DNA of 64,000 nt from NCBI GenBank assembly GCA_000934665.2, contig JYFJ02001629.1, positions 1 through 64,000 of the forward strand, given 5' to 3'. This DNA comes from Catajapyx aquilonaris. Taxonomy: Eukaryota. Positions within the stretch are counted from its first letter, which is position 1, and every line of letters begins with the position of its first letter. Below the pieces are notes generated by a model. It worked only from the letters and a program-made list of their open reading frames with translations, did not search any database and was not told where the DNA came from. The position numbers and the translations under genes were made by a program. Shown piece after piece: positions 2,100 to 64,000 of this stretch.

Positions 2100-5000
2100 T
2101 TACTGCTGGTGCTGAGGCACGAATGTGTATGCTCCCTGGTGTGGGTGCCTGAGAGCCAGACGCTTGGGTGCCACTGGCACCAGAGTGTATGCGCCAGAAT
2201 GTGTGGTTGCATCTGGCTGCTGGGCATATGCAACACGGACCGCGGGCCGCACCACTTTCACGTGACGGTCCTCCTCCTGAGGCTGCGGTACGGGGATTTT
2301 CACCTGGATGTCTGTTGGTTCTCTCACCACCTGCAATGGATTTACTTTTACTTCAGATCCACACTGTTAGTGTCATACAATGTTGATTTCTGATATGCCC
2401 CAGGAACTGCATGACAGTGATAGATCAATGCAATCATGAGCGATGAGACCGAGTCTAGACCATGTCCGGTATTATTTTGTTTGCTATGGTTACAGTACAG
2501 GCTACAAGTATATGCGAGTACCAAACGAAGTGTATTATTTAAATTCATGTTGATGTACTGTGTAGTGATGGAAATAACGAACAGCCAAATAGTGGTTCAT
2601 AATATTATTTTTGGTGTAGTTTATTCAAATGTGACGGCAAGTAGAGAAATTACTGAATCAACGAGCCAAACAAATATTTTACGTCAAATAATGGGACATT
2701 TACACAGAGCCCTTGGCTGCCAAGTGAAATGTTGCCAAGACAAAGAAAAAAACTGACCATCTGATAGCATGTAAACATGGAGAAACTATATGTTAGTACC
2801 TTCTGGCTAATTTGTTTGTTGCAAACATAATATTCTTCTTGTATACACAATCAGACGATCGGTCTCTGTCTTGGCAATACTGTGCTTGGATTAATTTTTT
2901 AAGTGTTTCCTGTAGTGTCTTGTTTTAATTATTATGACCATATATTTTACTAATGCTGGGTATTAAAACATGACTCGTCATACCTTAGCTTGGAAACCGT
3001 GTATTGGATCTGCAGTGTAGGTGACCGTACGCACGTATCCGTCAGAGTCGACGACGCTGTAACTTCCCTTGATGATGTCTCCATCTCGGTTCTCCTGTCT
3101 GTTCTGGTAATTGGTGTACTCGTCGTCTCTCACGTCGAAGGAGAAGTTGTACTGAGGATTCGGCTGAAATCGGGAACACAAGTTAATATAATTACAATCA
3201 CATACAAATAGGAGCTAAGTCCGTCCTGAGTTCGTTCTAAGTTCGTTCAAGTAAGCAGACCTTCTACTACATTCATCACGAGTATACAAAAACATTTGTC
3301 AAATTTTATGATGGAGTATAATATTTCTATTACGTCAATGTCTTCCTCTTCCGATTGCTCCTCCGATGAGTGACCTTGCTGCAGTTGCTGGGCCTTGACC
3401 CTGACTGCCTTCAGGTGGTGACCTCCAGGGCTGACCACCCTCTGGATTGCGTAGGTAGGTGCTCCTGTGGCTGACACAGGTACATATCTCACTGGATGTG
3501 GGTGGTGACCTCTGGCTGGAGCTGCTGCCGATCCTAAATCACAAATAATAATATTAAAATATAATAAAATATTGAGAGCGAATAAGAAGTGAATAAGAAA
3601 GTGAAGAAGTGTATAAAAAGTGGAGCGAGCTTACTGTATATTCGTCTTTTTTAAAACAAGATGTTAATCACCATTTTCACATTTTACTTGGCTTATATGC
3701 TTTTCGACCTATTTCCTTAATCACTTCGAAAGGATCGAATGGCAACTATACGCAATTCGTGCACTATTTCTCACTATTGTTTGTACTGATTGATATCTCC
3801 GGGACTAATTAATCGAGCCATCCGAAAGTTGCAAATTTTCAAATGAAAACAAGCGAGATTACGATGGTTCTTGACCTCAGATTATCACAGCAGCAAACTC
3901 CTGGTTAAACCAACCTTATCACACCTTTTTTTTTCTCTCTCTCTCTCTCTCATTAAAGCAATCACAATCATCATTTGCTGAGTGCCATAACAGCTAATGC
4001 CGAGGCGGAGAAAGTGAACTTAGATGGCTTGTTCTCTCACGTTTTCGCTGTCTGACTGCGATATATCCCACTTAGGTCCGATTTCGCCCGGAGCTAAATA
4101 GAAGGTAAGAACTGCTTCATGAGAGCACAATTTCATAATAAGAAAGGAGGCTTAGTCATTAAAAACGATTTTTAAGCCATCTAAAAAGTAATGTAATGAT
4201 CTCCAATGCAGTTGGTTTTCTCTCCAAGAATTATTGTCTCCTTTTTAAATTTAAGATGAAAGTTTGATTTACTTTTACTCATATTTATCAAAGGTGAGCT
4301 AACTGGAGATAACCAGATATAACGTTTTTTTTGTAATTCAACCTTCAGTATACATAATTTCCCGTATTCCTTACTTTTCTCTTGTGTAAGTATATGATAA
4401 AACCAGAATGTGCAGAAAAGTATGTTATGCTCCAGTAGTTTGATCCGGAAAGTTGAATTTTTAAAATCTGCATTTAGTCCAAGTGCACACCCGATTTTTA
4501 AGGAGAGGTTTTTCTTCATTTTCACTTATGAAATCTGGCAGTGAAACTATGCCCATAGCTTTCCCCATCAGACACTGTTGCTTTCTTCCTAAAACCAGCC
4601 AAATTGGTTCGCAGAAGAGTGAACAATCCGGAGTCGTTGAAATTATCCACGAGTAAATATGAAGAAGCATAAAAGTTCCCATTAGTACGAGAATAAAATT
4701 AATAACCATTAATATGATAATAAAATTAATAAACATTAATACGAGAATAAATTAATAAACCTTAATACGAGAATAAAATATAATAAAATAATGTGTTGGA
4801 ATTAGGCGGCCTATATATTTGAACTGAACCACACAAAGACCTAGAATGCGAAAGGCACTGGATTGACTTTGATAAATTAATAATTTAATTAATCCCCATG
4901 GTGTGCTTTATAAAAAAAAAATAATTCTAATTGATCAATCAGGAAATAGTCTGAACCATCCGACTAAGCAATTCCTAAATAATTATGTATCTCATAGTTC

Positions 5001-5619
5001 TGTGTTTTTTTTAAAGTTTTCCTCCATCAATCTCATTTGGACTTAACCACAATTATGTAAAGTACCAGGGGCATGCAAGCATGACCCAAGTCCACAAATG
5101 AACAATATTTTTATTTATTTATTTATTTACCCCAAGAATGAACCATATATATTCAGACATAAACTCTGATTTTTAAAATGTTTGGACTGACCTCAATGAC
5201 ACCGAAGAACTGTGATGAGTTCACCCCAAATTTGTACTTGGACTTTTTTTCTCTCCTTATTTTCCATACGATGTACTCACCTCTTCTGTACGTGATCGCT
5301 TGCCCAGGGGCCGAAGACGAGTAGGCGGTGTACGGGTAGCCTCCGTTTGGATTGACCGTGGTCGCGATTTGAGCCTGAGGCAACGCCAGTTGCTCCCTGT
5401 ACACGGGGTCGTACACTGCATGGTGTTGCGCCGGTACCTGCAGCAGGGCTCCATTCACCCTGGCCGCCTTGTGCCGGCTCTGCGGGTATCCCCATGTCAC
5501 CGACCCCATCCACACCACCAGCACGAGACACACCTATTGCGCAATTCATGAAGAGGGTTGTCGCAATCAGTGAAAGGCACAAGCCCAAGCGAAAGGAAAA
5601 AACTTACCTGCAACTTCAT
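2100..5619 (-). CDS. Cuticular protein, CPR family with RR-2 chitin-binding domain (291 aa, 5 exons)
   Basis: Exons 5619..5608 (MKLQ), 5533..5281, 3533..3334, 3163..2984, 2330..2100. All introns are GT-AG with consistent phases; total 876 nt. Signal peptide MKLQVCLVLVVWMGSVTWG. Rebers-Riddiford RR-2 motif PQYNFSFDVRDDEYTNYQNRQENRDGDIIKGSYSVVDSDGYVRTVTYTADPIHGFQAKVVREP. Ala/Pro/His/Val/Gln-rich flanks. Confidence 0.95.
4687..4790. repeat. Degenerate AT-rich tandem repeat (ACGAGAATAAAATTAATAA-like, about 3 copies) in cuticle gene intron 2
   Basis: ACGAGAATAAA recurs three times, separated by AT-rich spacers. Confidence 0.55.
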
Positions 5620-5730: not shown

Positions 5731-8700
5731 GGACCCCTGTGCTTGCAGGGGCGTGGTCTTCTTCTCATGGAAAGAGAAACGGATTCTCTTTTTTTTCTTC
5801 TCCTTCTCAGTCCAGGGGCCACATGAAGGAGGTGGGTGGGTGAAAAGAGAGACAACTGGAAAACTGGAGAGGAAGAGGTTGGAAAAAGGGTCCGTTGTGT
5901 GATTATTGGAGAGAAAATGGACCGACACTTCTGGTCTAATTGGGACAGGTTGACTCCATTATCTTCCTTGTGGAGTGGTAATCAGTGTTACGACATCTGG
6001 GTGGTGCATATTTTGGAAGCTGAGTACATGAGACGACACGATGTCCTGTTGATTTTTATATTTCAGAAGACAACTGTAAGTTTCGGCTACTGTAGAAAGA
6101 CGGAAGCGGAAGACATGATGATTAATTATTTCAGCGCATTGTGAAGATGTCATGACCATATCATGAGCACATTAATTTTTCTTGGGAATACACTAATTAG
6201 GAAATTTACATCTAGAAAATGATGTTGAAATCGGTCATTCGGCATGAGAAAGGTACCAAAAATTCATATAGTGTTTCTTGATAGTTCGTAAAAGAAATCG
6301 GATTTTTTTGTATACAAAAATGGGCGTGCTGTGCCCAAAAATGAGACAAAGGGTCCTAATATGTGTAGATTTGTAGATCTGGAACTTTTAAAATATTCTG
6401 GGAACCGGTACAGCACACAAACATTCCCAAATTTCTGTAAAACATTTCGTGTGTGAATTAGTTTAGTAGGAGTTGACCGATTTCCATATATTTTGCTCTG
6501 TACTGAGAAGATCCAATTGTTTTTACTTTCAAGAACACTTTTACATGCAAGCCATTCGTAGACCAATAGTGGATTCGATGTGATTAAATAACTCGATAAG
6601 AAGCAAACAAAATGGGCTCTGATTGTTGAAGCTTTTAAAACTAATTTCTATATATACATGTGTACGATTGTATCTTCTTCAACCTTCAGAAGTCACGTTA
6701 CATAGATAACACTTTTGACTTTTTAATTTTTTTTCTTTTATAGTTGAGCTGGAAGTTGAATGATAAAAGAAGCCGATTAGCAACTGGAACGGCCCACTTC
6801 TTTCAGATGAAGACAAGTGCAAAGAAGTGCCGGAGCCATATGAGTATTCCGGTATATGGAAGGGGGGGGGGGAAAAAAAAGAAGGTTCCTTCTTCCTGCA
6901 ATTGAGAGTGAAAAGTGGGTACCTTTTGTTCTCCCTCTGGATCATTCCTGCACCACAAGAGTCGCATCACAGCCGCAAAAGAAAATCACCAGTTCTCACC
7001 ATTTAGATACTATCTCCTTTCCGTCGCCCTATTTATTTATTTATTTTTTTCCCCCTTTCCATCCTAACCGTTGGGAGCTTTTCCTTCTCTGTTAAGTCGG
7101 AATTAATCAAGTTGTGGGCCAAAGTGTTGCAATAAAATCTGAACGTTTCAAGCCCGGAACCACAGCTACTGGTTATTACGCAACTGGAGACAGTAAAAAG
7201 AGCAGGGTTTTATTCCTTTAGAAAATATCGGATGGAAAACATGACAAAGGGATAACGAAAGACGGTATTATAAATCCGGCAATAATTTCTCTCTCTCTCC
7301 TAAGGATATTGTGACCTACTAAAATTGGGCAAATTTCGAGGCCGGTCACCTGGGCGTGTGCAAATAAGAGCGGGATTGCGTAAGGTTTCATTGTGAGGAG
7401 ATTTTTTTTTTTACTGCGATACATTCCATTGATTAGAACGTCACTCGTGATCAGGCTCCTAAAACGGTATAGGGTATTGCTAATATAATAAAATATAAAT
7501 GTAAATAATATAGCAATAAGCAGGAAATTTCGTTAGGAACAGTTGTAATTTTTCATAAAGCTATTGGATGAAACCCTGTACTGTAAAAGTGATGGATCAT
7601 ATTGTACCACATCTGAACAATTAATTTCTCAATCACATACGATTAATAATCCCTATTATGTGGAGAAATAGATCGGAAAAGAATGATGGTATCCGATTCA
7701 GAGATAATCAGTGCTCTATCCTCTGCCAGGTCATGCGAAAAGGGCAGCTGAGTTAACCCTTTTTGTGTCGGAGTCGACACCACTTCTTGGCTCAATTAAC
7801 CCACTTGTTAATTATTTTTTTTATTTCACTTTTATGCGGCATAATATAGCCTGGTGTTGCCGTAGAGAAGGAGAGAGTGGTGTGTATGAGTGTGTGGAGA
7901 ATATGAGTGAGAGTTAATTCGGGGGCTAAGGTTAAGGTGCTGTATAGCATGGAAGCCTCGTGAGCATGAAGGTCTCTGCCAACGGAATTTTTCTCCTTTA
8001 TTTCTTCTTCTTCTTTCTCTTCTTTTCTTGGAGGTGAGAACAAGACGAAAAAGGCAGTCAGTCAAAAATCCAAGGATTCATCTCCCACGCTCTGGGTGAA
8101 AGCTGGCAAGCATTTTTGTTCGTCAACCTCTCTCGGAATGTGACCAGTTGTCGAAAGCTGCTGCTGTGGGAATAAGGCGCATGTTATGCGCCTACAAACA
8201 CCATTATAGCTCATTGACTATGACCCCTACTATAATATTGAAGCCAACTCTTGAACTGTGTAATAAAGTGCCTCAAAAAATGCAGATTAAAGGGATTCAT
8301 AATGCAACATTTCGATTGCTTATAGAATTAATTACCAACATGCCTGAATAGTTTGAACATATTATAATAACACTGAATTTTACGTTTAATAATCACTTTG
8401 AAGGGGGACTAGTCGCAATTACACTCAGAGCAGATGCAACCAAAAATCATAAGGAAGAGACAGTGTTTCCTGACTTTCGCGGAAAAGACACGTAATCGTA
8501 GGTAAATAGGCGCATTTCCTTATATGTGCTCGGTGCAGTCGACGTATGTTGCTGATGAGATGAGAACAGCACGCGCAATTAGAAAGTCCTTTTGTTTTTT
8601 TCCTTGCCAGAGAGGAAAAGTTTACAAGTGCAGGCGACCTAGGCCTACAGCCCCAGGAGGATTTCCTTCCAACTGTTTCCGTGCCTATTGCTCTATTTAC

Positions 8701-9696
8701 TGCCATTAAATTCAACTTACATCTACTCAATTAAACGATCATAAGATGCAGTCAGTTTGCACTTTTCGTAACATGCAGGGCCTCAAATCGCAAAAAAATT
8801 TGGCAAAGTGGTGCGGTTCTTACTACAGAAACTTGCATTATACTGATGAGTAATACAGGGTATCAAATTTATTAATTTTATGGGCCAAGAGAAATGAAAA
8901 ATGTATAACGATAATATGTAGTCCAGGTCACCATAAGTGAGATGGGAGAAAAGTGAATTTTTTTGTTTCAATTTTATTCATTGTTATACGCATAGTTCAC
9001 ATAGGTGTAAATGGAATTTGCATTGTTATTTAGTCGGGCAAATATGATTTGTAGCAATTAAAAAGTGACATCATTCACACATGTTTTTCCCCCCTCACAT
9101 TATATTTGTTGGCCTGAATCACATATCGTCACTCTACATTTTTGGCCCATGTGTCTTGAAGTTATGAAGCAGCATTGTATTTTGTGCAAAAATCAAAGGC
9201 GACTCAGGTATTCAGGAAGTTCAATACACAAATGACCCACTCTCGCACAACAGGTAGTAACACATTTCCATTAAAATAATCCATTTTTATGATCATTTTA
9301 CCAGAAGTGATTACATCTACAATACCAGCAGTTTCCTTAGCCACATGTACCGGTTCTGAGTTCTCATTTACTGTACACTGCTGCACTGTAGTGTTCTTGT
9401 CCATTCCGGCTTGCTGCAGACAGTATGACAGAAGTGTACCGAGGCTTACTTGTCACGTACTCATTCAGTGACATTCCCTGCTGCTTATCTTAGGTTAGAA
9501 ACACTGCTCGTGTCAGTCTTATCTTGAGGTGAAAATGAACGGGCTTTAAAAGCCTCGGGTGTGGTATCACGTAAAGTGTTTCGCTGTCGTACAGCACGTA
9601 CTAACCGTAGTACAGCTCTTTGCAAGAGACGTCATGCAATTTTTGAGCAAAAGTTTTTTTTTCTGTCACGAGCTTTGCTGGTGACGCAATGTTTTT

Positions 9697-12690
9697 TCAT
9701 CCGGCTTGGCGAAGTATGGTCGATGGCCTCGTGCTCTCGGAGTAATACCAGGTATGGTGGCCGCACAACGACGACGATGCGATGACTTTGCCGCTTACCA
9801 GTAGACACAACGCACCTGAAAATCAGATCAATTATTCACTGGTACAATGAGAGAAATATACATATTAAAAATTGAGAAAAGTGCTGTGATTGTTATAGTA
9901 CCCAACAAGGTTTAATTAGACTTTAGAGGAAGGTATCTGCATGCAGCATATTGATGACGTATATGCCATTTAACAAATAAACGTCAACATACTTCAAGGC
10001 GTTTACAATTTTTTGAAAGAAAAATTCTGAATATATTTCCACTTGGGATAAAGGGTTGGAACACAAATATTGTGATTGATTCTCACGCGTTTCATTTTTT
10101 ATAAAGCCAGTTGTGATTATGTGGAAGAAGAGAGGTCTTCGTTTGAATATTGAAACAATTTTAAACTGTAGACTGATATAAATATTATCAAGTCTATGAT
10201 TATTTCAGTGGGGGAATATGTTAGAGAAATGAAGACCACTTTCATTCCTCTCTGTTTTATGTGGAATATAATATCGTCATAGCCATTAAGTAAAGGGGGC
10301 AGCGTTGGATGTACTTGACTGGGAAATGGAAAATGAAAGCATCACGTCATTTGAAGGTCACTTGAAGGGAGTAATGACTTCGTTAACGCCCACGTAAACG
10401 ATGCCTTCAACGCGTAAACAAATAAACAAAGTACCGGGTAACAGAATATCCCCCAGTGGTTAAGAAAAACAATTCAAAAGTGCACGGTGAGTAAACAATG
10501 TAACAAATAATATGACACTGGCACGTATGTCCTATCTTTGGACGTGCGTTTTTTCCATTCAAAACTTAAGTAGGCTATTTGATGTTATAATTATTAAAAG
10601 CATTAATTGCTGTAAGTAAAATACTGAAAGTGTTGAAAATGGTCATATTATTAATATTGATATTACGACTAAAATCGATAAAAATAGACCCATATAGTGC
10701 ACAGTACTAATTAGCAATTGTTACTCGTGGACAGATTTGTGCCAGTTACCACCAGTTCTTTTGACAGGTCATACACGAATTATTGTGCAGAAAACACACA
10801 GGTCACGCAATATTCTCAATGTTCACGTCCATGATTAATACGGCCGACCTTATGAAACCTGCCGACCTTCCATCCGTCGTCATTTCGACCTTTTGACCTC
10901 GCTTCATTTTTTTCTGTTTGTAATACAGCTTTGATTCGAATGTTATGTGCGTGTATACCCATGAGGATTGCTCCGTAGAATGCGGACCCGTAGTGGAGAA
11001 GCAGCCAGTTGGACTGGAAGGGAATGGCCAGGTGTTGTTGGGTCCTGATGAGACACAGGTGGTAGCAGAGAGAGGCGGCCATGAGGAGGACCCCTCCGCC
11101 CAGCAGGAGAAATATATGGCTTTGGTGTTGCTGCTCCACCAAGGCGATCACGTTCGACATGCAGCACAGTACCAAGCCACACCTGGAATGAATAAAACAA
11201 GCACCAAGAATCACCTGACTTCAGTCACCGAAATAAAACGGGCAGGGGTCAGGCAACAGGAAGGTGGCGATAAAAGGCGTGGCTCAAAGACGTTCACCTT
11301 GCTTCCAAAGCACATCATCGAAAATTTATTTGGTTGTTTGGTACGTCAAAAAACATTACTTGCAAAATCCGCTTAATTGCATTAACGCTCCGGTTAATTG
11401 CATATGGCGCTCCGGTTAATTGCATATGGCGCTCCGGTTATTTGCATAACTCATCCGGATAATCGCATAAAATTCGAATCATTTTATTTTATGTAATTTT
11501 AAATTTATAAACAGGTGTCATACCCACCATAGGAGGATTGTGGCGATGTGTCCGGCCATTTGTAGCCTGTTTCCCCAAAAGGGCGGGTCCTCAGGTCGGA
11601 AATATTCCAAGGCGGTGAGGATTGGAAAAGGAAGGCCCTGATGGAGTCCGGCCCGAAGACATTCTTCTCCTGTACAAAAGAAGAAAGGGAGAGTTTTGTA
11701 TATATGGTGGTGATGATTTTTTGGTGACATGGTCTCAAGGCAACCTGTCCCAATCCGCACGATTCGATTAACCGTGGTTTTGGCCAAGGACGGATTTGCA
11801 CTAAACAAAAGGGAGATGATGAGTGAAGCGGGCCAGTGCTTTTGATGGGAAGGTGGGAAAGGTGTTTGAGAAATTGCAGCAGTCATTCTGGAGGTTGGAC
11901 GAGAAACAAATAGGTGTGGAAAAGCGGCGGTTTTCCCAAAAAGAAGCATTTGAAAAAATTTTAGTGGACAGTTATTGGAGGTCAGGATAAATGTAAAAAA
12001 GGGCGAGCTGCAAGGCTGCCTGTTTAAGCCAAAACAAAAATTTTAAATGGTCATACGTTCAAGGACAAGCATTGGTAATGACTTGTAATGGCCCATAAGC
12101 AAGGCTTCTTTTCAGTTGTTTTCCTCTGAAATTCTGCAGGTGTAGTACACTGCGTTCCTATACGTTACAATAATGTCTTTTGATTTGATAGTATCAACTA
12201 AACATAATCTGAAATTTTGTCTTAATTTTCAGCTGGCTTTTAGTCGGAGGCGCAAACTCTCTATTGCATAATTACAGGAAAACTAGCGTGTGGGCGTTAT
12301 GTAAACATTGCCCCCACGGTTTCCCCCGACTAAAAAATATCCGCACAAAAAGGCTGGGCACTTTCACAAGCAAAATCACTCGTTATCTTGATTCTGATTG
12401 CAAATTGAGGCTTCCCTGGGTTTTCCATACGAGACAAAAAAAAGTGTTAATTGCAGTGATTGTACTTGCTGATTTTGATATAACTATACCTTGGTCCCAT
12501 GTGAAGCTCTTCCGGTAGTGGATGGGCACGGCTACCTCTGGCCCCTTGAGGTTTCCTTCCAGGTGTATTTCCGCCCCCTGCAGGCCGATTCGGATGGCTA
12601 GGTGCCCTCGAAAGAAGCCTCTACTGGTTGGTCCCACCGCCTCTTGCAAGGGCACCTCACCTCTCTGCCACTCGGGCCACCACAGCAAAT
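9697..12690 (-). CDS. DUOXA: Divergent dual oxidase maturation factor (DUOXA / NIP / moladietz-like); N-terminal exon(s) not resolved
   Basis: Four phase-compatible GT-AG exons. 12690..12490: LLWWPEWQRGEVPLQEAVGPTSRGFFRGHLAIRIGLQGAEIHLEG...IHYRKSFTWDQG, cf. DUOXA EWSVGQV...IGLQVGLGGVNITL...INYNEEFTW. 11669..11528: EECLRAGLHQGLPFPILTALEYF...WGNRLQMAGHIATILLW, cf. ALEKGLPDPVLYLAEKF...YRLAGHYTSAMLW. 11182..10959: two TM helices plus LAIPFQSNWLLLHYGSAFYGAILM, cf. LHTHHGPAFWITLTTG. 9815..9697: GALCLLVSG...stop. Reference sequences are from memory. The last exon is the least certain. Confidence 0.85.
11368..11470. repeat. 22-bp minisatellite (TCCGGTTAATTGCATATGGCGC), about 5 copies, in a DUOXA-like intron
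   Basis: Two identical units at 11389-11410 and 11411-11432, flanked by three degenerate units. Confidence 0.9.
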
Positions 12691-15600
12691 CTATTTTGAG
12701 GAAAAAATACCCAAAAAATAACATTTTTTGGGATGTATGGGGCCATTAACATCATTTGAGCAATTTAGTACCATGACGCTACCGATAGATGGCGCACATG
12801 TTTAGTTACACGACGCCACCGCACCATGGCGCCACATTTATAGGACCCGACATTTTATGTGCCTTATTATTCGTCCTCCAAGCTCATTTGCTAGGGATCC
12901 GCCTTACTTAATCTGCATCTTTCGCATCTTTGGGCCTCATCGTCCTTGGAAGCGTGTAACAACACACGAAATAAACATTCGGCAGTTGGGGTAGGCCAAA
13001 GTGCCTCGCAGGATATGTGTCGGAGCCATCAGAGTCAAGGCCGTTCAAGGATTCAAGGTCGGCCTCCTTTTTTTCTTAGATACGATCGTCACACATCGTG
13101 ACTTTCTGAATGAAACAAAACTTGAAGAAAAAAAAATCAACCACTCGAGCAATATAGGTGAGAGTCTGGTAAATAAAAAAAAAAACTTGGGTCGAAGAAT
13201 CCGGAGGCACTTTTTTGGCGGCGGCAATAGCTCCTCAAGGCTGACCTTGTGGTCAGGCGACAGAAAACGAGAGTGATGATGTGACTGGGCAAAGAGGGAG
13301 ACAAGTCCATCTTTAGAAAAGAGAGGCATAAAGGCCTCTGCGGGTAGCTGATGGAGGTACTATGCATTATAAGTGCTAATAAAGAGGTGCACTTGCCATC
13401 CTTGGTAGGAGGGGTTAAGAGGAGGGGTCTTCAAGGCCTTTGATCACTTATTATCGTTGCTGCAAGTCTACTGCATCACGTTGTTGAAGACTAAATTAAC
13501 ACCCTCTTGTCGCTCGCGGACATGTCAGTCAATTGTAATCAAAATGGGATGCTGATTGGTTCAGGTTTACGTTGCTCACGACCCTAATTATTAAAAGTCA
13601 GTAGCGATCGATGGGTAAACACCTTTCGGGTTTTGAAAGTATGTTAGACTGGAATTTATAACTAAGAAGAAGCTTGGGGCTTAGATCTCTCATTCCTCTG
13701 TGAGGCATGTAGCCCCTACGTATTTTTCTTACTTTATTGTGATAAGTGATATCAATTTTTTGGGATCATTGTTGAGCTACACTGACATGCCTGTTTGCAT
13801 GAGGACATTCAAGTTATTGTGTGTAACATACGACATATATTGTCATGGGAATCACGGTACATGCAATTATGGTGACTCTGTAGTGTTATTCTGTGTGGTT
13901 TGCAATTTTTTTTTGCATTGAATGTTGCCTATGCAGTGTATTGCATGAATGTCAGTCACTTTTTTTTGTCTATTTCCGTTGCTTAACTAGCCCCTTATTC
14001 GATGCTGATTACCCCTTTTGCAGGGAAATGTCGTGATGTTGTTATTACGTGTCTTAACAACATCGCAGATAGCATGAGACACGTACTCGTAAAATTTATA
14101 ATTAATAACAAGTTCCATCACTATCCAAAAAAGTTTTTATTGCCGCACAAAATGCGAAACATTAGAGACTATTGTTGTAATAAAAAATGACTATAGAACT
14201 CCTTTCAGAATGTACTGTAGGCCTACTACAAATATGTGCGTAACATAATCTACGAATGAGTCACATCTGACTGTGAGACAACTTCTATAGTAGTCTACTA
14301 TGGCGCATTTGTATTGTGCATAGTAATTTAACACTGACTTAAGCATTTCCTCCTAGTTGTAGTTACATCATGCACAGGAGGTATAGCTAAATGACTATAA
14401 AAATTGTTCGCACCTTGATAACATCATATAGATAGTAAACGACTATTTTTGAAGTTTTTATGACGCGATTTTACACCCATAATATATTTTCATACCCAAT
14501 TAAAACCACTCGCTGGTCTTCTGTCGAGATGAGTTGCGGAAAACCTGGCTACCTATTGTATAACCCATCATAACAAAGGACCATTTATAGTGCTTTCAAG
14601 GCTCACTTATTACGCCCTATAGCAATCCACAAAATTGTCCGAAAAAGATGAATTAACCTTGACCGAGACACTTTCACTCTCTACCTTTTATTTCGCAGGT
14701 TGACGACAGGTCTGTTGTCGCCACCTTTTTGTCCAATTGTCTCTGGGAATACCGCACTAAAATTTATCCAGTTTTTTATTTTTATTTCAAAGGTTGAATG
14801 TGGTCCACGGACACCTCAAAATTGCATACTAGTTGGCTGCTGGGGCTGTGTTCATCACGAATTCCGACACGATTCATTTTCCTTGTGACATGATGGCATT
14901 GAATATGGACCATCAGTGCCCGGTCGTCTTCTTCAGGCCGGAACACGCAGCAAAAATGATGTTTCGCCCTGATCTTATGTAACTAAGGTATTGTTCTTTC
15001 AAGGGCGGGATTTGAAGATGACTCGGTGCTGTGTTGCCGACGATAATGAGACTTTCACTCCCCCCACAGAAAAACCCGGCAATGCGCAAAAAAGTGGAAC
15101 GACCTCTTATGAAATTATTATTTTTCGCATCCTCTTCGGGCCATTTTCAAATTTTTCTCGGGCCAATTGTTGACAGCCAACAAAGTGATGACGTCAAGGG
15201 TCAAGCACAGCTTCAAAGAGATCCGACGCAATTTGCATATATATGCTAAGGAGTCCGCGGCCTTCCTGTTCAATGTCCCGCAACCGAAATGCCACCGGTA
15301 CAAAAAAAAAAAGTAGCGTCCTTCACAAGTACAGATACTGTATCTGAGGTACCATCACATGCAATGGGGAGGGAAGTAACTTACAAAAAAATTAGGGTTG
15401 AGTAATGGGCTTTGAAGCCTGAGGGCACTTTGAGCACGGATTCTCAATGTCAAGGAGATTTTGGGAAACTTTCCGTGTGTTTCGAAATATTTTTTTGCGT
15501 TTCAGAGATTTGCTCCAGGAAATTGTGAGAAAATTCTGGAGATCCCGCTCTGATATTATTGAATGCATAAAATTTCTGACCAAAATATTCAGTGGTAACG

Positions 15601-18600
15601 TTCATGCAAGGAATCGATCAGAAAGTTGTTCAAATATTTAGTGGCAAAAAAGCTAAAAATGCTAAACGTCCCAAACATGTGTACAATATTCAACTACCTT
15701 CCTGCCAGTGACGTTCAATAATTTTTCAGAAAGGATAATTTTGCGCTGATCTGCTCCTTTTTATTCAAAACGAGACAAAAGTATCTTATGAATTTAAACA
15801 TTCAGAATATTTAGTCAGTTCGAAACAATTTAAAGGCATTCTCCTTATTGTTGGTGATTATTCATTGCTTCTTTAATTGCAAGACCACACGCCTTTTGGG
15901 TGAAGTTTTTATCAACTAGGCTAATTTGAGAAATCTTTCGTCGCCATGATTTAAAATTGCATCCAAATCGGTAAAAAAAATTAAGCCGAAACATTCCGAA
16001 TAGGCTTATGTTTTAGTACCTAAAATGATAGGCGATTATTTTTTATTCTAACTTGGTTCGATGCAACAGGCCATACAATAATTATGGCATATTGTGTTTT
16101 TATTATTTTTCCTTGCTTATCATATACCTGTATAACCGATTCTGAGACGTAGTTGTTTTGGGAGCAAATATATGGAATAGGTATTCACAAAACAAATTTC
16201 TCTAAATTTACAGTATGTTGATATAACATAGGCTTAACTGTCCATTCAGGCCATTCAGGCCAAACCTATCGCCAGTAATGTATATACACAATACAAAAAA
16301 ACGATAACAAACACCGCCATTATTAACGGCTCTGTAAAAGTCACCTGCGGCAATGAGCAAACCCACTGCACTCATAAACCACCAACTAACGTGACCCGCA
16401 CAAGAAAAAGGGCCACGGATAAAAGGTGCAAGCAGGTCACGACCTTGTCCTCCGTCGCTGCCCTCAGTCCTTCACTTCCCATCTAGAAAGTGAAGCTCTC
16501 TCAAATAGCTTTATACTCCTCCTCGTCTTAAATAATAAACCGAAGATGGTTTCCTTTGGAGCATTGACCCTCCTCCCACCACCGGTCGGTCAACTAAACG
16601 TGGCACACTGGTCACCATCACTGGTCACTTACACAGTATGAATGCAGTCCCGCACACTCGGAAATACATCGAGGGCTATAAGCACTTGGCCTCTGTCTTG
16701 CTGGCCAACATGGCTAAAACTGAAGGCATCTCCTTCTTCCTTCCCTCCTTCTCTGGACTGGGGGCCGACCATTCTCGTGTCAGGTGCCCTGTGGCGTCAC
16801 CACTCAAGGTCACGGAGAGCCAGGTTACGTACCTGCGCAAAGAGGATTATCCGACCCAACCCCCTAATCTACACAACATAGGATTAACCTCAGGTCTGCT
16901 TACCTGAAATAATTGGACATTGCTAGTTACACTCATTGGCAACACTGTGACTGAAACATTTTATTAAAAATTGCATTAAAATATTTCGCAAGATCTGCAA
17001 GTAATCTGACTTGGATGATTCGGATTGGACAGCGGATTTTGGCCATAAAGTTGCGGTTTAGAAAGTGAATTGTTATTGCCTTGTTTGCTTATAGAGCGAG
17101 GGTTTTAGAGTAATTTGATTTGTGTAAATTGGCCTGTTAGCCTTTTTTTTTTTAAAAAAAAAAAAGCTGCGCAAGTTGTTCCAGTGGTTGTCAAAATTTG
17201 GAACGAAGGTTGAGAACTTGAAAGCGTTACGGTTCAAATCGTTTGGCTTAAAAAGATTCGTGGTTTCGGCCAAGGTCACCTTTGCTGCACATTTTTTTTT
17301 GCGAATTTTCATTTCAAAACGGATTTCAGGTGAAAATCCTGTCTTCATGCTAATATTACGCCGCAAATTACAAAAATCATTACTTTTAATAAACCACTTC
17401 ATATTGCAGATATTTTTTTCCAACGGCATCACGAGTAGGTCACCTTTTTGAACTTGGCGCAGACAACCTGGGAGGGCCCTCCCTTTTATTTACGAGGTTA
17501 GAAATCGCCAATAATTTGGCAATAAATTACACCAAACGAAGCTTCACGCCCAGGCAGTTAGTGTCCATAATGCATAACAATGCCCACCAGAAAAACAGTG
17601 TAATTACAACGCATGCATTTCTGCCCATGACCACTGTATGATACTTGACCCCCGTGTCTTATGTCAGCCGATTATGGATAATAAAAATGGCACCGCATTT
17701 TCAACGTGTCTCGTAATTATTCATATAACGTAAAAACCATTGGAACTACGTGTGTTCAATTACAAATTATATTTATTGAATATTTTGGTAATAAGTATGT
17801 GCCTCAACAAAATGTGATCTGATGCCCAGAAGTCCATGTTATGAAACACCCTGTATATCCAGGCTCGTCCTTCTGTATTGGCCCTTTTTTTTTCTTATGA
17901 CGTACTACAGCACGAGTTCAGCCACATTACATTAGGTTCAAGGATCCTTTTCTTCTAACTTTTTTTTCGTCCTTTACCTCTCCCTATAGCTTTACAACCT
18001 GGCGAATTTTTATTCGCGACACTGTACTTTAGGGGTTTGAATTGGTAATGCTCTCAAATTGCAGCTTTGTGGTTGCTGAGTTAAGAAGTGAAGAAAAAAG
18101 TAGGCTACATAGTTTGGGTGCTGTCGATAATTCCAAACTCATTGACAGGTTCGACCCTCTGGGACACAACGGTATCTCCATTTGGCGAGACAGTAGCTTG
18201 AAAAATCCTGACTGCTAAAACCTTGGGAGTGAGATGCTGCCCCATATTTTTTGAATGGTTTGCACGCTTCTTATTTGCATGTCTCTGTACAGGACTGTGA
18301 ATCATCTAACGGTACAGTCGCTGTATTTTTGGCTTACACCGACCGGATAATTGAACGCAATTTATCAACAAAATGATGAATTACCTCGAGTACTATTATT
18401 ATTCACATCGCGTAGTTCACAATAATTGAAGGCGTGCATCGCACATCGACTGTGATTATTCACTTTCGATCATATACATTTGTATAGGCAATAAAAGGTA
18501 AGGTACCCATCAGATAAAAGCTGATTATTGTCCTTGAAGCAGATGGAGGCCGTGGTAAAGCAACCCCCATAATAACGCACTTTGCTAATTGAATGATAGA

Positions 18601-36100: not shown

Positions 36101-39100
36101 TTCATACCCTCGAATATTGAAAAGCATTTATGGTCCAAATGATGATTGACAGCGACCTGAATACTTGAAAGTACTTAACACAGTTTCTTCAAAACAAGTT
36201 CAGGACAATTGAACGTGCACAATGAAAGTGATACATTTGCCGAGGAAAATAATATCCACGTGAAAAAGATTATTGTAATAATAAACTGTACTGTTTTATA
36301 CAGTAAACAATAACGAATTGACAAACAAAATTAATATGACAGAAAATAACATGTAACAAATTGTGTAAATAAAATTCAAATATAAAATTTAGAAATGTGG
36401 AATTTACGCCCACATATTTGAACCAAAAGATAGTTTCAGCTTAATTGGTAGGCTCAATTTCAGATTATGTTTCTCAATTACAACTATCACTTTTATGTGA
36501 AGGCTTTTTTTTGCCCTCCTGAAATTATCAAATATTTTTTTTCTTCTTCTTCTTCACCCAGGCCCTTAATTTATTAATTTTTCTCTTCCCCTTTCCCACT
36601 GTTGGTCCGTTCAATCTCAGCGGATAAGAAGCATCCATCTTGCACTGGTTTCATCTGTCATTTTTTTGCGTGATTGATGACACTAAAAAACGGGTCATCT
36701 CTAGCCCGAATTTGTTGTAAACAGGATAACCCACAACATTATACATATATTTTTTTCCCTCTCCTTCTCTCTGCGGCCTAGCCCGCGCAATGTTTTTGAT
36801 GGACATCAACCTTTGTGCCTTGGTTCTTGGCACATACAAAGTAGCACACACCATGATGGTCATCAAGCTCGAAAGGGGGGGGGGGATACTCTTCTCGAAT
36901 TTCTGTTGGTGCCCCTGCCTACAAGATAGGTTTTGAAAAATTCTTCAACTTTTCTCCCCCTCCTTCTTTTTTCCATGGCAATTTGGGCTCCCTTGGCCTC
37001 ATCGACCCCTCCTTCAAGTGTGGAAAGGAACGGACAACCCGCAGTATACATTATGCTTGTTTAGAACTGGGCGACCATCTAAACACTTTCTAGTTAAGAA
37101 AACGTCTCCGGCCAGACCTCCCAACTGGACACACACTGGAATTTTTCACAGTAACAATCGCAATTTATGTCCCAGCAGAGGAAATGTGGACGAAACTCAG
37201 TTTTGATCGCGGAATCATATATGACAAACTGGGCCTCCAAAAAAAACGATGTTTCGTGGGCGTCAGATCATCTAAAATAATCGTCATATTTATCATGGGT
37301 CCTGGTCCGGGTCCCATGAGAAGAGGCGATGATGGCCCTCAGCTTGGGGGAGAGCCCTCGACTGGGGGTTATTTACCTTCCCCAATGGATTGGATCATTC
37401 CCTCCCAAACTCTGGATCCCATCAACGTCAACCAAGCTATTTTATCTGGTATCCATCTTTACTGGACAGATGACCTGTATGGGACTTTGAAAGTGTATAC
37501 AGTATCCACAGCATATAACTTCTCAAAAACTAGGCGTGGGAAGGATTTCTTATGGACCCCACTGTACCCATGGGTACAGTGGGGTCCATAAGAAATCCTC
37601 TTTTGAAACCCTACCGTTGCAATATTTATGACGCGATTTTTGGGGGGGGGGAGAAGTTAGGTGGATAATTATTCAAGTTCAATTTTAATTACTTTTAATT
37701 AATTATTTAATTTAAGTTTCCTTTGCAAACCATTCATGCAAAGGAATCGCTTGAATTTATATTTAGTTTGAAAATATTATCGCAGATGACAATTACCACA
37801 ACTTGTTACTAGTAATGAGACCAAATTGTGGCCCGTCAAGACTGTTGCGAGATTTTTCCAAAATTATTTAAAAATAAATAAATTAAAATTAAATTTTAAA
37901 TAAACAAAAATCTAGCCATTAATAATGCATTTTAATAACTATGGGGCGTAAGTTATTTTAAGTATTAGATCAATTATTATTTTAAAATATTTTCTACGCC
38001 ATTATCACAATTTTCCCCCTAAATTTTCAAATTTCGTTGCCATGGTAACCAAACCAGGACAAGCAAACAAACAAACAGAAACAAACTTGGCCTTTTATAA
38101 TAGACCCCATAGAGATGGGGGTGTGATGGACATGGACAGTGCACCACACACTATTACAGGAGGACCCAGTGACAGTGATTTTGAGAGTTGTCCCCCCCAC
38201 ACTTTTCACTCATTTTCTGACGCCATATTTTTTTCCCCCTCCTCCTCACAGTGTACGAGGGGATGTCAGTTATGGAAGGAATCCCTGGAGTCCAGCTGTC
38301 AAGATGTCTGCGTGAGTATATGCCACGCACTGTTAAGGAGAGACTATTTGGCGACAGTCATCAGTCAACCATTATTGCCACTTTTTTTCAGAACGGGATC
38401 CAGGAGGTGCTGCCGGAAGACGAGATCTACTGCATGATGGGCTGCAACTTTGCGGTCAACTCGTACATCCAGCAGCTCAAAGGTGATTACGTAATGTATG
38501 ATAATAATATACAGAAAAAAAAGTAGAGCCTTATTTTCGATGCAAGTCTCGTTCGCGACTCGGGTTAAGTGAAATGGCCCCCGGAGATAGCATGTGTTTT
38601 TCAACCTAAGTCTCATGATAACAAAGCTGTGAAAACAATTTGTTTGCGTAGTGCAAGTCCTGTTGTTGTCATTGCACTGGTTACAACAATCCTTCATTTT
38701 GTACTGTACACCATATTGCACACCATTTTTGTGGGTTGACACATTATTGCATAGCACCGTCCATATATAACTCTCAGGTTCAAAGAGAACATCCCGGTAG
38801 ATCCCGATGTGTAGGCACGAGTGTAGTGCGCATGCGCGGGTAGTATATACTAGAGTGTGCGCATGCGCGACTGGAGAGACTAATCCATATCTTTTTCCCT
38901 CCATTTTTCTTTCTCCTTAGACGAGATAGGCACCCCTCCTCCTCCAGCCCTGGTGGCCGATTCTCTGACCAACGTGTCCCTGAGCCTGGAATGGGGAGGG
39001 TCACACCATTCCAACGTGGCTTACCTGCTCCAGTGGAGATACGCCTCTCTGCCAGGAACATGGCAGTACTTTGCTGACCAAGTTCCGAAGCACAACACGA

Positions 39101-42100
39101 CCAAATTCATCGACTGCCTCCGTCCATACACCAAATATATTGTAAATTCTTGTCTCTTTCTAACTAGAGTGAGGCTTATTAAATATGGCGAAATTTCAGT
39201 TCCGAGTGGCATGGCTCCTGGCGCCTGATAGAGAGCCTCTGATGTCTCGTCCGAGTGTGGTCATCAGCACAATGGCTTATGGGCCTCCATCCGCGCCGCC
39301 TGCGCTGACCACGGTAGCCGCAGTGGACGCAACGAGAGTCTCAGTTGCCTGGACGCCATCTCCGTTCCCAAACGGACCTGTCCTCTCATATGTGCTACAA
39401 ATCAGGGAGCTTCCAGCTGGATACTCAACAGTCAAGGTTTGTCACAATGACACACACCAGATGAATGATCTCTTCAAATGTTGCACTTTTCCTAAGCATA
39501 CGGCTGTCCGAAACATTTTATGCGTGCAGTATGTAATCTTGATTATTTTCACAGGATGTGCCAGCCTCGGAAGAAAACTTGTTCTACCTCTTCAGCGGAC
39601 TAAAACCGGGTACAAACTACAGCGTCTCAGTCGCGACTAGAAACAGCGCCGGAGAGGGACCTGCAGACGTCCGGGTCGTAACTACTCCTCCTCACATGGA
39701 AGGTAATTTTTTCTCCAACATTTTGGTACACCAAAGTGCAGTTTAAAGGTCTTGTTAACGGCCAGTTAAAATTGTTGGTTAAAACCAGGCACAATCCTAA
39801 CCGAACTTTCTTTCAGCCGTGAAGGATTCCCTGGAGCCCCATTTGATCCTGGGAGCTAGGCAAACCATAATTCGTCAGGGGCTGGACCTCTTCGAAGGTC
39901 TAAGCGTGATTTATAACAGCACAAGGGAAATCACAGGTTAGAAGCTTTAGAAGTGGGAGGAGACTGCTAATAGGCTGATTAACTACTCTTTTTTTTAAAT
40001 TGTAATTACGCAGGCGTGGCCGTACATGTCAGTAAGAAGTTACTCTTCGTGTCCGATTCGGCCGGATACATCATCATCAGCACATTGGGAGGTCAGGAGC
40101 CTCCAACAACCCTGCTGACCCCTGCCCACATGGGTTTCTCACCATCAGCTCTATCAGTCGATTGGCTCAACAATCACCTTTACATTCTGGGCAAGGTACA
40201 GTTCAAACGAGTTCTTTCTGCTATTCTGCTATTTTCTGTTATTTCCGTTATTCTGCTATTTTCTGTTATTTCTGGCGTTCTGAAACGTTCTGGAAGGTTA
40301 GTTAATTGTTAAATGAAATGATTTTATACTTTTGGCAAGGTGGTGCATTCGTCCGGGTCGGTATGGCAGATATCGAGGTGCTATTTCGACGGGAAGGGTT
40401 TGACTAATGTGATGCCTCGTCTGCCGAAGAAGCCGTTGCACTTCGAGGTGGATCCGTTCAATGGGAACCTGTACTGGGTACTGGTGGGGGTACCGAATGG
40501 AGGTTTGTACAAGCTGGACCTGGCAGACGTCGCGACTGAAAGGAAGAATCGGGAGGTACAACCGGAGCTGATACTGGAGGACCACGAGTTGGGGGCGTTC
40601 GCAGTGGATCACATGAACTTCAGGCTGCTCGTGTCGCACCAGACGCAGAACACGGTCATCTCTGTTTCGCTGGACGGAAGCGACGTGATGGACATCAGGG
40701 ACAACACACAGCAGCCCCGGTTCCAGAAAGTACTCTCGATGGTCACCTACAACGGACTGTTCTACTGGACCAACGGCCAGGAGGTGATCGGCGAAGAGTA
40801 CTTCCCACAGCAGGACAGCTACTTCCACAACAGCTATCCGTACCTGTCCTCCGACAAGCCCTTCAACAGCATCAGTCTGTTCCATCCCGATGCACAGCCG
40901 GTACCGATGCCAGTCAATGCGCCTAGGGGTGTACAGGCCATCTTCAGCAGCGAAGTGGCGAAGGTCAGTGGAAAGTGGACCTGGTCTAGACCGGGACCAG
41001 TTGTAAACCGAAACTTTTTGACAGGTGATGTGGAAGCCTCCTCAGCTATTGGGCGGTATCGGCAAAGGAGCATGGCAGAACTGGCTGTACGAGATGCACA
41101 TAACGGAGGTGAACGTCAGTCGGATAATTTACAGCAGGGACATCAACACTACGTTGTACACGGTGCACAACCTGAAGGAGAATACCGAGTATGCCATCAA
41201 GGTGCTGGCCTACTCATCCGCCGGGAAGGGACCGTGGTCACCAGAGTTCAGAGGTCACACGCTCAAAGCCACGTCCGAAGGGAAGTACCCGGTGTTCCTC
41301 TGGAGCGCACACGACGGACTCTTGAAGACTGACATACTCGGAGACAACGTGGAGACACTCGTGCACAAAGTGGCATTGCAGGTACTGTACACTTTACGAT
41401 TTGCAAACTCCAGAAACTACATATTGGCAAAATTGAAGGACGGAAACGAGCGGTACCACATAATGGACATTACGTGGTACAAGGACGCTCTGTACCTGGT
41501 CCTGAACAACAGCCAGGTCGTGTACTTCAACATGACTTCCCGAAAGGCTGAGAAGATGGACGACATCGACTCGGCCGGAAGCATCGCTGTCGACTGGATC
41601 GGACACAAGCTGTACTGGTCAAGCCCAAAGCATCAACTGGTACGAAAAAGTGTTACCCAATCTTCATAAACTGTGGTACAGTACATTGCGATTTATCCAA
41701 TAGATAACTCGAGCCAACCTGAACGGTAGTTACCAAGAGCCGTTGCCGATAATAACAGTCGCTAGAGAACTGAATGTGGACGCTGTTTCTGCCAACATTT
41801 ACTGGTCAACCGGACATTCGGTGGAGTGTGCCAAGTTGCACGGAGGAGATCAGCAGGTTTATTACCAAGCTGGACTCTTCTCTGGAAAGCAAGGTGACAA
41901 AATAATTATTCAAGTCGTAATAATTCAGGATGGGATTTAGCACAGAATTAATTGCAGTTATGGGATTGACTTTGGACTCGTTGCAACAAGACATTTACTG
42001 GATGGTACGTAGCTACGAAGGTTCGGTCCTGTTTCGAGCACCGACTGTTCCAAAAGCTACTAAGAAACTGAGCGAGACTATTGAGGAAGTTAGCAACTTG

Positions 42101-45100
42101 CAACACGCTGTTTTTCAAGGTATGCTCTCCATTTCTATTTTTGCAAGTTAGCCTGGAATTATAGAGCGATGTTTATTTGGCAAGGTCCACTTCGATGTTT
42201 TGGAAACCATCTGGTATGGCTACAGGACGAGGATAAGGTAATTATAGCTGACATGCAGGGACAAAACGCAGCTGTGTTGAGCAGCATGGGACTTACAGAC
42301 CTGAAGACAGTCGGAATAGTTGACTACATTTCGCGAGTATATCCAGGTAAAGTATGCCTGTGAACAATGAAGACAATGCATGACTTTTTTGCGCTTTTGC
42401 AGAAGGAACATCTGAGAGCACAATAAACGTGATTCCGAACCCGATCAGCGCTAGTTCCCTTGAAGTGATTGGAAACTGGGAGTCCTTCCTGATCTCCTGG
42501 GATCCAGTGACCAACGTGAACTACGGTCAGGTGTTTTATGAGATCAAGTTGGAAGGAGAGTACCCGAACCAATCGGTGGTGACGGACAAGTCGCAGTTCG
42601 CAGTTGAGAGTGCGTCTGTACCGCATCCGTACTCGGTCCTACAGGTGGTCCTAAGGGCATTCACTTATTGGGGGTCATCGCAAAGGACGGTGGCCAAACT
42701 GAGGTCACCACCTGGACCCCCATCGGTCGTGAGGCATCCTAGAGTCTTTGTGTCGTTCAGAGAAAATCCGATGACCGGAAATAAGGTAATTTCAAGTTTA
42801 AATTATTGACAAAGAGTGTGCGGTACATCCTTACATGTTGATTGCAGGGAATAATGGCAGAGTTCAGATGGGACGAGCCGTACAACTGCAACGGGATCAT
42901 ACGAGGGTATAGGGTCAAATGCTGGTTGGAAGACACGCCAATGCAACAATGCGAGGATGTGGTCATACCAGGCAGCCAGCATCACCTGATTGTGGAGTAC
43001 TTGTATTCCAACAGCACGTATTACTTTCAGGTACGTTAACACGCAGCCGAAAAAAAATATGTTGCGGACAATAATAATGTCCGGTGTTTTCAGGTCCAGG
43101 CGTACACTGACGGGGGTGAAGGTCCGTTTTCGGCTAAGATAATGGCCCAGAGTGGTGTCGAAATGCCGGTACCGAAGTTGCTGATTGCCACCCAGGATGC
43201 GGTTAAGATTACGGATATAGACAAGAAGGAGAATACGACATTGTCCAGAAACACTGTCCCGCCTGTGGACCTGGCCTACATCGGATTCGAGAACAAGTTC
43301 TTCTGGATCAACGAAGGACAGCAACTCATGTGCTCCATGTTGGACGGAACCAACAAAACCAGGGTAAGGCCCCCCCCTAATTAATTAATTATGAGGATGA
43401 ATGCTAATTGACTGTTTCTTACACAGATATTCACTGTGAACGGGACAGGACACAGCATAACTGTGGATTGGATAGGACGATACCTGTACTGGGCAGAGAC
43501 GAACGAGGAGAGTGGGACATCCGCAATCTATCGTCTGGATCTGAACCAAGATCTGACCAAGCAGCATCCGGACATTGTTGTCAAAAGCAACACTGATCGC
43601 ATCAGCTCCGTCGGTGTCGAGCCTCTCACCAGGTAAAAAAAAAATCACTCAACATGTTCAACACACAATCAGACATAAAATCCCCAATTTCTAATATAGC
43701 ATACGTATATAGGAAAAAAAACTCTAGTAAGTTCCGGAATATGGAAACCGAACCCGTTTCGGAACCGGTCCACAATGTTGCCAACTGATTCCCACACCAC
43801 CTTTTTGACTAATGATTGGGAACTGTATATAAATTGGGCCGGTTCCGAAACCGGTCAGGATGCTGTGTGAATGTCACCACCAGTGACATTATGGTTTCCT
43901 GTAGCTCACAAACCGTTTATGTTTGCAGCCAGCTATTTTGGACAGCCAATAAGAAGAGCGGGATTGGCGCACTGATGACAAGCAACGCTGACGGGTCTAA
44001 TCCTCGCAGATTCTTTCAGAGGAAGAGACGAACGTATGCTATTTTAAAAATAATTTCTTGCTCTTAATAATTTTTACGATCTGGATATAATTTTTTTTTC
44101 TTCTTTCCAAACCTGACATATTTTTAGAGCCAGAAGCGAGACCGGATTCCCTTGCACGTGCCCCGATAATCCTGCAGTTGGCAAGGTTCTCAGCGTGGAT
44201 CACGCTGATCCTGATAATCCACGGGTTTTGTGGGTGGACGGATGGCAAAACCATGTTTTCATGGCAGACATACACGGGTGTCACTGCACTGTGGTCGTCA
44301 ACGCCACCATTCACCCTCAAATAGGTGAGAGAAAAAAAATTATAGTCACGCCTCTAATAACAATGAGAGAGAGAGAAAAAAATATTATGCACATAATCAG
44401 AGAGTTTGCCTAATAACAGTCGATGCAACTGGTCCTTTGATCGTACTGTACATATCTACATATATATTATATAAAGGGCAAAGTTGCTTGTTTGTTTGTC
44501 AATTACATACCCATTTCATACCCATTTTAAATGTTTTTATATAGGTCTTCCACCTTCGTCTATGACGGCCGATCATGGTCATGTGTATTGGTCCAACTCG
44601 AGTCTGGACAGGGTGTACTTTATACAGAAACCGAGTACCAAAGTGGGTATGCTGATAGACGGTGTTAGCACCTTTCCGGTGAGAGGCATCAAGAGTGTCA
44701 GTGCATTGGGTGACCATCTTCAACCCTATCCAGGTTAGTAAACCTGAACAAAATATTTTTTTTGGGTCACATTTTCTTCATTACTAATGCGATGCAATAT
44801 AATTTTTGTACTTACAGTTCTGCGTTGCCTGATTCCTGAGCAGCAGCCGCAGTCTGTGACTTTGCACGCTTACACAGCAAATTCAATCACTCTTCGGATG
44901 CCAGCGTCGCAACGTTCGCCGTCCTGCCAGAACGTGTCACTTGCATCGGTACGGTACACCCTCCACTACGGTATGGTCGGAGCAGGAGGCCAATCGGACT
45001 GCACACCTGAAAGCGTGGAACAATGCCAGAATCTGGTAAGAGTGCAGTTGGCAACACACCAAGTACCAACGCGATAACTGAGTGCGATAAGACAATGAAG

Positions 45101-63602: not shown

Positions 63603-64000
<398 letters not shown>

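Follow-up and report, generated by a model that had tools for sequence, protein, structure and literature searches.

A DUOXA-like gene of Catajapyx aquilonaris without the N-terminal peptide, first membrane helix, and glycan site of its family, in a genome with many divergent DUOXA-like and Duox genes

What can a DUOXA protein still do once the parts that touch its Duox partner are gone? In the human complex, DUOX1 is contacted by the N-terminal peptide of DUOXA1 (F8, F10, Y11, and K15), its lower TM1, its claudin-like domain, and its N109 glycan; changes to the peptide alter the superoxide/H2O2 ratio, and TM2 to TM5 resemble claudins (Wu et al. 2021, PMC7794343, in the portions consulted). 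The question is raised by a minus-strand gene in the 64,000-nucleotide stretch of Catajapyx aquilonaris DNA analyzed here (hereafter the window), which a first-pass annotation described as possibly a second, fast-evolving DUOXA that had lost its glycosylation sequons. We find that the gene is a real DUOXA by descent that fails three defining features of the family. Since the genome has multiplied both helpers and Duox copies that are apparently blind to their fuel, the role of this gene is probably not that of the textbook helper.

The gene had been proposed as four minus-strand exons (12690-12490, 11669-11528, 11182-10959, and 9815-9697) that join in frame. Sequence inspection bears this out: AG acceptors precede all four, GT donors follow the first three, and a single open frame crosses the joined exons to a TGA at 9699-9697. 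The proposed extent of 9697 to 12690 was too short, however, as an upstream exon at 16752-16633 had been missed. This exon appears in contigs of X1, one public run from a single study, its kind not on record, and the only run holding this stretch. X1 contigs exactly skip the introns at 9816-10958 and 11183-11527 and also skip a third at 12691-16632, all with GT-AG ends, which indicates that they are spliced RNA. Own-genome searches with exons 2 and 4 returned the window copy and contig C6968 only, with no second genomic copy, and thus no processed copy was found as a source of these joints. The predicted junctions 11528/11182 and 10959/9815 are therefore supported, while 12490/11669 is not bridged in X1, where two records extend 4 and 10 letters beyond it. 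The features of the gene are as follows.

16633 to 16752, minus strand: upstream exon (exon 1), 5' leader and first 12 codons; in X1 record 4, a GT-AG intron is removed between 16633 and 12690
16676 to 16729, minus strand: in-frame upstream open reading frame, ATGs at 16729 and 16711, stop TAG at 16678-16676
16667 to 16669, minus strand: inferred start codon; by alignment, the protein would start within the helix equivalent to DUOXA TM2
12490 to 12690, minus strand: exon 2, last part of TM2 followed by the extracellular claudin-like domain's beta-sheet, no sequon (PF10204 positions 65-126, E 0.014)
12640 to 12623, minus strand: AVGPTS, replacing YKAFS
12560 to 12586, minus strand: GLQGAEIHL, with Glu and His at the Asn and Thr of the sequon equivalent to human DUOXA1 N109
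12517 to 12503, minus strand: YRKSF, replacing YNExF
11528 to 11669, minus strand: exon 3, GLP-x-PIL helix, conserved Glu-Tyr-Phe, and start of TM3 (PF10204 E 6.4e-8; mouse DUOXA1 6wxr_B E 0.0024)
10959 to 11182, minus strand: exon 4, TM3, TM4, second extracellular loop, and start of TM5 (PF10204 E 0.0011)
9697 to 9815, minus strand: coding part of exon 5, end of TM5, tail of about 25 residues, and TGA
9350 to 9696, minus strand: 3' untranslated part, on the same spliced contig

The 5' end of the upstream exon at 16752 is the end of a contig, not a mapped transcript start. Record 4 has no letters other than those of the genome, and the TAG, two codons upstream of the main ATG, is present in both. 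The main ATG has a weak context and lies behind the in-frame upstream frame. Neither AATAAA nor ATTAAA occurs in 9200-9697. X1 contigs also cover 8405-8636, downstream of the gene, and 9884-10356 in its last intron (7 differences in 474 bases, depth 2.3), and an imperfect tandem repeat with a unit of about 22 bases lies at 11380-11450, between exons 3 and 4.

Membership in the DUOXA family is supported exon by exon and for the joined protein. Three of the four exons first proposed individually match PF10204 (DuoxA) at the E values listed, and the last alone has no Pfam match. Exon 3 by itself reaches 32.4 bits against a curated cut-off of 23.3. Against a profile built from 34 DUOXA homologs, the joined protein reaches 81.6 bits (E 2.6e-27). 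At uniform codon use, the probability that a frame stays open over 240 codons is about 1e-5. A homolog search with exon 3 alone gave one candidate and none at E<=0.01, which is weak evidence that there is no annotated copy or close ortholog.

The three substituted motifs are present as originally described, and exon 2 indeed contains no N-x-S/T, its sole Asn lying in GNLK. Such a loss is unusual for a DUOXA: the N109-equivalent sequon is kept in 172 of 182 homologs (a set of 37 and the best 150 matches, overlapping), with another residue in six and a gap in four, and 168 of 171 full homolog loops have at least one sequon. The first-pass annotation nevertheless overlooked the larger change. The 240-residue product starts at TM2 in the sole transcript seen, and it lacks the N-terminal peptide and TM1 in addition to the sequon. 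The five-TM topology with an extracellular N-terminal peptide is thus absent from the protein as read from a single transcript contig; TM1 is present in 147 of 166 Met-starting homologs, and some of the other 19 may be partial. Scanning 12.6-64 kb with a peptide-plus-TM1 profile gave scores of 16 to 20, against 15 to 19 for antisense controls and 61 to 65 for the canonical DUOXA genes on contigs C19 and C28, and the best ATG-plus-TM exon with a phase-0 donor scored 2.1, against 28 and 64 for positive controls. Counted from the inferred ATG, TM2 is short, with a best 17-residue hydropathy of 1.29, below the TM-calling threshold of 1.6. The protein keeps 17 of 25 near-invariant DUOXA columns (homolog median 96%), and five of the eight lost fall in the extracellular beta-sheet.

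The tail is short and has no NxxF, as first described. Fly NIP binds Numb through NxxF motifs; the word Numb occurs zero times in the mol paper that we searched. NxxF is found in only 46 of 148 homolog tails and its absence is therefore a poor marker, so that this part of the description says little. The tail of the C19 DUOXA has one such motif. The window protein has four Asn in total, none in N-x-S/T or N-x-x-F.

A PF10204 search of the genome contigs returned 25 matches on 14 contigs, from which we modeled 12 DUOXA-like loci: 2 canonical (C19 and C28) and 10 divergent. The window gene is thus one of 12 modeled loci, not a second DUOXA. Canonical copies, whose presence the first-pass annotation had proposed to check, do exist. 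The C19 gene is Mol-like, 61% identical to wasp and aphid DUOXA. It matches the family at 25 of 25 invariant columns, has both the peptide and TM1, carries two sequons in its loop, and lies about 45 kb apart from its Duox. C28 carries a second canonical DUOXA, head-to-head with a Duox gene. Eight divergent genes (C2314, C1527, C3659, C4071, C876, C541, C1582, and C4822) form a clade with SH-aLRT support of 100 that excludes the window gene. They are altered at the same extracellular columns as the window gene, and most of them have a long C28-type loop and a long tail that is acidic or rich in Ser and Pro. No modeled loop in this clade contains a sequon, and a peptide/TM1 exon was not found in the seven members scanned. 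The sequon loss of the window gene is therefore real but not peculiar to it, being common to the seven members of this clade with modeled loops. In C4071 and C1527, an in-frame stop lies just upstream of an ATG at TM2, and this shared arrangement makes a start at TM2 a recurrent state.

The members of this family differ in how completely they could be modeled. The model of C4822 is cut by the end of its contig, and a fragment on the 341-base contig C18443 was left out of the count. C876 (G000:C876:33350-33800, minus strand), counted among the 12, has no clear start and a doubtful N terminus, middle exon, and junction; it is possibly a broken gene. C1280 (L011, G000:C1280:45181-46080) is a second short-loop divergent DUOXA, coded mostly in one exon, which keeps a sequon; its frame is preceded by an acceptor, and its first exon was not found. 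Matches on C6968, C487, and C2738 were rejected as DUOXA loci, with scores of 16 to 23 and no coherent model. C2314 (L017), C1527 (L018), and C3659 (L019) share one Lys-rich, acidic, Cys-Trp-rich terminal motif; the tails that precede it differ greatly, that of C2314 being a Ser-rich repeat of about 1000 residues.

The most likely parent of the window gene is the Mol-like DUOXA of C19, not the eight-member clade. Its best match in its own genome is C19 (27.6% identity, E 2.4e-23), ahead of C28 (E 5e-16). A quick tree of 48 of 191 rows places it within a short-loop group (SH-aLRT 98), in keeping with its short loop without the Gly-Phe-Gly insertion, and gives it the longest end branch, as expected of the fast-evolving paralog first proposed. 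It is not grouped there as the sister of C19, which is the Mol/NIP ortholog. Three of its four intron positions are common to C19 and two of the four to C28, but some members of the other clade share these introns too, so introns do not decide the parent. AU tests on 30 rows rejected no grouping (window gene with the clade of eight, p 0.119; with C19, 0.135; with C1280, 0.305; the clade with C28, 0.156), and an origin independent of the clade of eight is thus favored, not proven.

The Duox genes of this genome have expanded in parallel. An FAD_binding_8 search found 12 loci, comprising the Duox genes of C19 and C28, a NOX5-like gene, another NOX, and eight divergent Duox genes. Two additional Duox halves, lying at contig ends, may belong to a single further gene, for totals of about 9 divergent Duox and about 11 Duox genes. 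Seven divergent models are near full length (1537-1587 residues). The divergent models are stop-free, as built by a gene aligner that has no frameshift state and penalizes stops, so that they may hide lesions. All four haem His are kept in eight of eight. None of nine has the NADPH motif GxGxTP, two of nine (C5764a and b) have GxGxxP, and the Cys-Gly and C-terminal motifs are also lost, the end of C2148 being uncertain. GxGxTP is present in 120 of 120 homologs, a circular figure because the homologs were fetched with that segment. From the conservation of NADPH-oxidase motifs (PMC1940245, in the part consulted), we infer that the divergent Duox proteins would be without oxidase activity. Rough and partly saturated NG86 estimates of dN/dS, from DUOXA-clade and Duox pairs only, are 0.25-0.53 in four tested pairs of the DUOXA clade of eight and 0.24-0.57 in six divergent Duox pairs.

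The divergent Duox genes form one clade (support 100). In the eight larger models, 7 to 11 introns are shared with C28 only, as is an insertion, and all of the divergent copies look derived from C28; the Duox tree itself does not join the clade to C28. In that tree, the Duox of C28 falls next to insect proteins (98) and barnacle sequences lie outside this group, which, together with the cuticle-protein gene adjacent to the window gene, marks the animal as a pancrustacean arthropod. One contig, G000:C4589 (1-16386), ends in the N-terminal half of a Duox, and another, G000:C3423 (1-23120), starts with a C-terminal piece; the two may be one gene, which would give a tandem array of three divergent Duox genes that are 82-89% identical. 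A tandem pair 51% identical lies at G000:C5764 5608-28606 (minus strand) and includes the sole copies with GxGxxP. The remaining NOX genes have canonical NADPH motifs: a NOX5-like gene at G000:C428:98982-103258 and a gene at G000:C2249:28869-31316 without EF hands in the modeled part, which by our own reading is NOX4-art-like. C1451 was rejected as a Duox and is a plain peroxidase.

Previous reports describe far smaller sets. A single DuoxA gene is stated for arthropod genomes (PMC12687331, portion consulted) and one to three Duox genes for eight arthropod genomes (PMC4833078, likewise in part), compared with 12 modeled DUOXA-like loci and about 11 Duox genes here. Our search of the open-licence literature found no paper reporting, for any arthropod, an expansion of DUOXA or a Duox altered at its NADPH site. 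Joint duplication of Duox and DuoxMF is established, with 0 to 12 Nox/Duox genes per species and 121 DuoxMF sequences across a set of 89 species, and six Sycon DuoxMF labels in figure text offer a precedent for helper expansion (Vullien et al., PMC11721785, sections consulted). The parallel duplication of enzyme and helper is alike here, with C28 head-to-head and C19 separated; truncated, unglycosylated helpers or NADPH-site-altered Duox are not described in those sections of PMC11721785.

Compared with human and mouse DUOXA1 (PDB 7d3e/7d3f and 6wxr), the window protein has a homologous TM2-TM5 and claudin-like loop, its exon 3 matches residues 144-183 of mouse DUOXA1, and its loop is of the short form without the Gly-Phe-Gly insertion. 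Unlike them, it has no peptide, TM1, or N109-equivalent sequon, its YKAFS and YNExF motifs are replaced, and its tail is short. It has the same short loop as the Mol/NIP-type DUOXA of C19, but of the two C19 alone keeps the peptide, TM1, and two loop sequons. With the clade of eight it shares the lack of a sequon and the apparent lack of a peptide/TM1 exon but differs in that most of their loops and tails are long and their clade is separate. Claudins, PMP22, and TARPs would be alike in the four-pass fold left after TM1 loss, but sequence and fold are far closer to DUOXA. In predicted models, the cores of C1280 and C4071 without TM1 fold like DUOXA1 (TM-scores of 0.86 and 0.78), with claudins and TARPs as the next matches at about 0.35-0.46; these are models of paralogs and were built from alignments that contained canonical DUOXAs.

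Our preferred reading, held tentatively and at a little under even confidence, is that the window protein acts as a four-pass accessory subunit of a Duox-family protein without supporting normal H2O2 output. It would be an expressed, claudin-fold DUOXA paralog, most likely copied from the Mol-like gene, whose retained membrane core and GLP-x-PIL helix may still fold and dock on a Duox-family partner but which would no longer be a textbook maturation factor. That partner could be one of the roughly nine NADPH-site-altered Duox proteins, in which case the window protein might chaperone or scaffold a complex that is non-catalytic or re-purposed. It could also be a canonical Duox, whose output an alternative subunit might damp or re-route. 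That divergent Duox and DUOXA genes have expanded side by side in one genome supports a docking role. Against it, the lost parts coincide exactly with those that contact DUOX1 in the human complex, a pattern that fits independence from Duox just as well. As the divergent Duox genes look C28-derived and the window gene C19-derived, there is no obvious co-duplicated partner, and no Duox gene is seen among the long open frames of the window. Glycan loss alone does not imply Duox independence, because in COS-7 cells DUOX1 reaches the surface at only slightly lower levels when DUOXA1 is unglycosylated, although in MDCK cells DUOX1 is then mis-sorted (PMC11555622, in the part consulted).

A broader version is doubtful but can be stated: the genome may hold a second Duox system that does not burn NADPH, built from about nine haem-keeping pseudo-Duox proteins and about ten four-pass, mostly unglycosylated mini-DUOXAs. 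The shortened helper would have arisen at least two times, from both ancient DUOXA classes, and the window gene would encode one such subunit. The complexes might be receptors, adhesion or scaffold proteins, or electron carriers from another donor.

That the protein is instead a Duox-independent tetraspan, a bare claudin/TARP-type fold that has been put to use at junctions or as an auxiliary subunit for some other membrane protein, we consider unlikely. Every change removes DUOX contacts, TM2-TM5 is claudin-like, and a co-duplicated Mol-type Duox was not found in the genome. Exon 4 also gives a weak Claudin_2 match in the Claudin/PMP22 (PF13903) test (12.6 bits, E 0.12), under the cut-off of 29.1, and the claudins and TARPs that follow DUOXA1 in the paralog fold searches point the same way. 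However, the DUOXA-specific columns, including the GLP-x-PIL helix, are retained, and the same losses recur in a clade of eight whose size matches the divergent Duox set.

Still less probable is a transcribed gene in decay, in which a once longer N terminus was recently cut off by a nonsense change, the TAG at 16678-16676, and little or no protein is made. Two upstream ATGs, one of which has a good context, open frames that close at this TAG. With the AG at 16692-16691 as acceptor, the exon would be 58 nt long and contain the stop, a length that exon 2 has in both canonical genes; the longest branch and an odd composition in the tree also fit. Yet the 240 codons hold no further lesion, the ends of four introns are intact, and an in-frame stop before a TM2 ATG is also found in C4071 and C1527. 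X1 differs from the genome at two coding sites, each of them synonymous, and the GC3 of the gene is 0.68 against 0.38 in its introns, weak signs that speak against decay. We regard as more improbable again an ordinary divergent DUOXA that matures an active Duox without a glycan and draws its peptide and TM1 from an unseen upstream exon spliced to the AG of the TAG, since the scans described above stay at antisense-control level and far below the positive controls, even though the 5' end rests on one contig of one run, an exon diverged like the rest could evade a profile, and glycan-deficient DUOXA1 and DUOXA2 retain part of their function.

Natural variants that lack the peptide, TM1, and glycan offer a direct way to test which parts of DUOXA are required for assembly, trafficking, and the output of H2O2 versus superoxide. 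If the window protein is paired with an NADPH-site-altered Duox, it would point to a non-oxidase role of the Duox-DUOXA scaffold; if it is merely drifting, the gene is another fast-evolving duplicate.

Its surroundings do not show the head-to-head Duox linkage of one ancient DUOXA class, the neighbors being a cuticle-protein gene and a receptor tyrosine kinase. The cuticle-protein gene, just downstream at about 2950-5550 (minus strand; Chitin_bind_4 E 1.6e-16), is probably a chance neighbor. Open frames at 13.0-13.4 kb have no Pfam family match. The large receptor tyrosine kinase gene, which has fibronectin-III repeats and which we take to be sevenless/ROS1-like, spans about 37000-50000 (plus strand), and the start of a class C GPCR, presumably metabotropic-glutamate-receptor-like, lies at 63603-64000 (plus strand; ANF_receptor E 5.5e-4).
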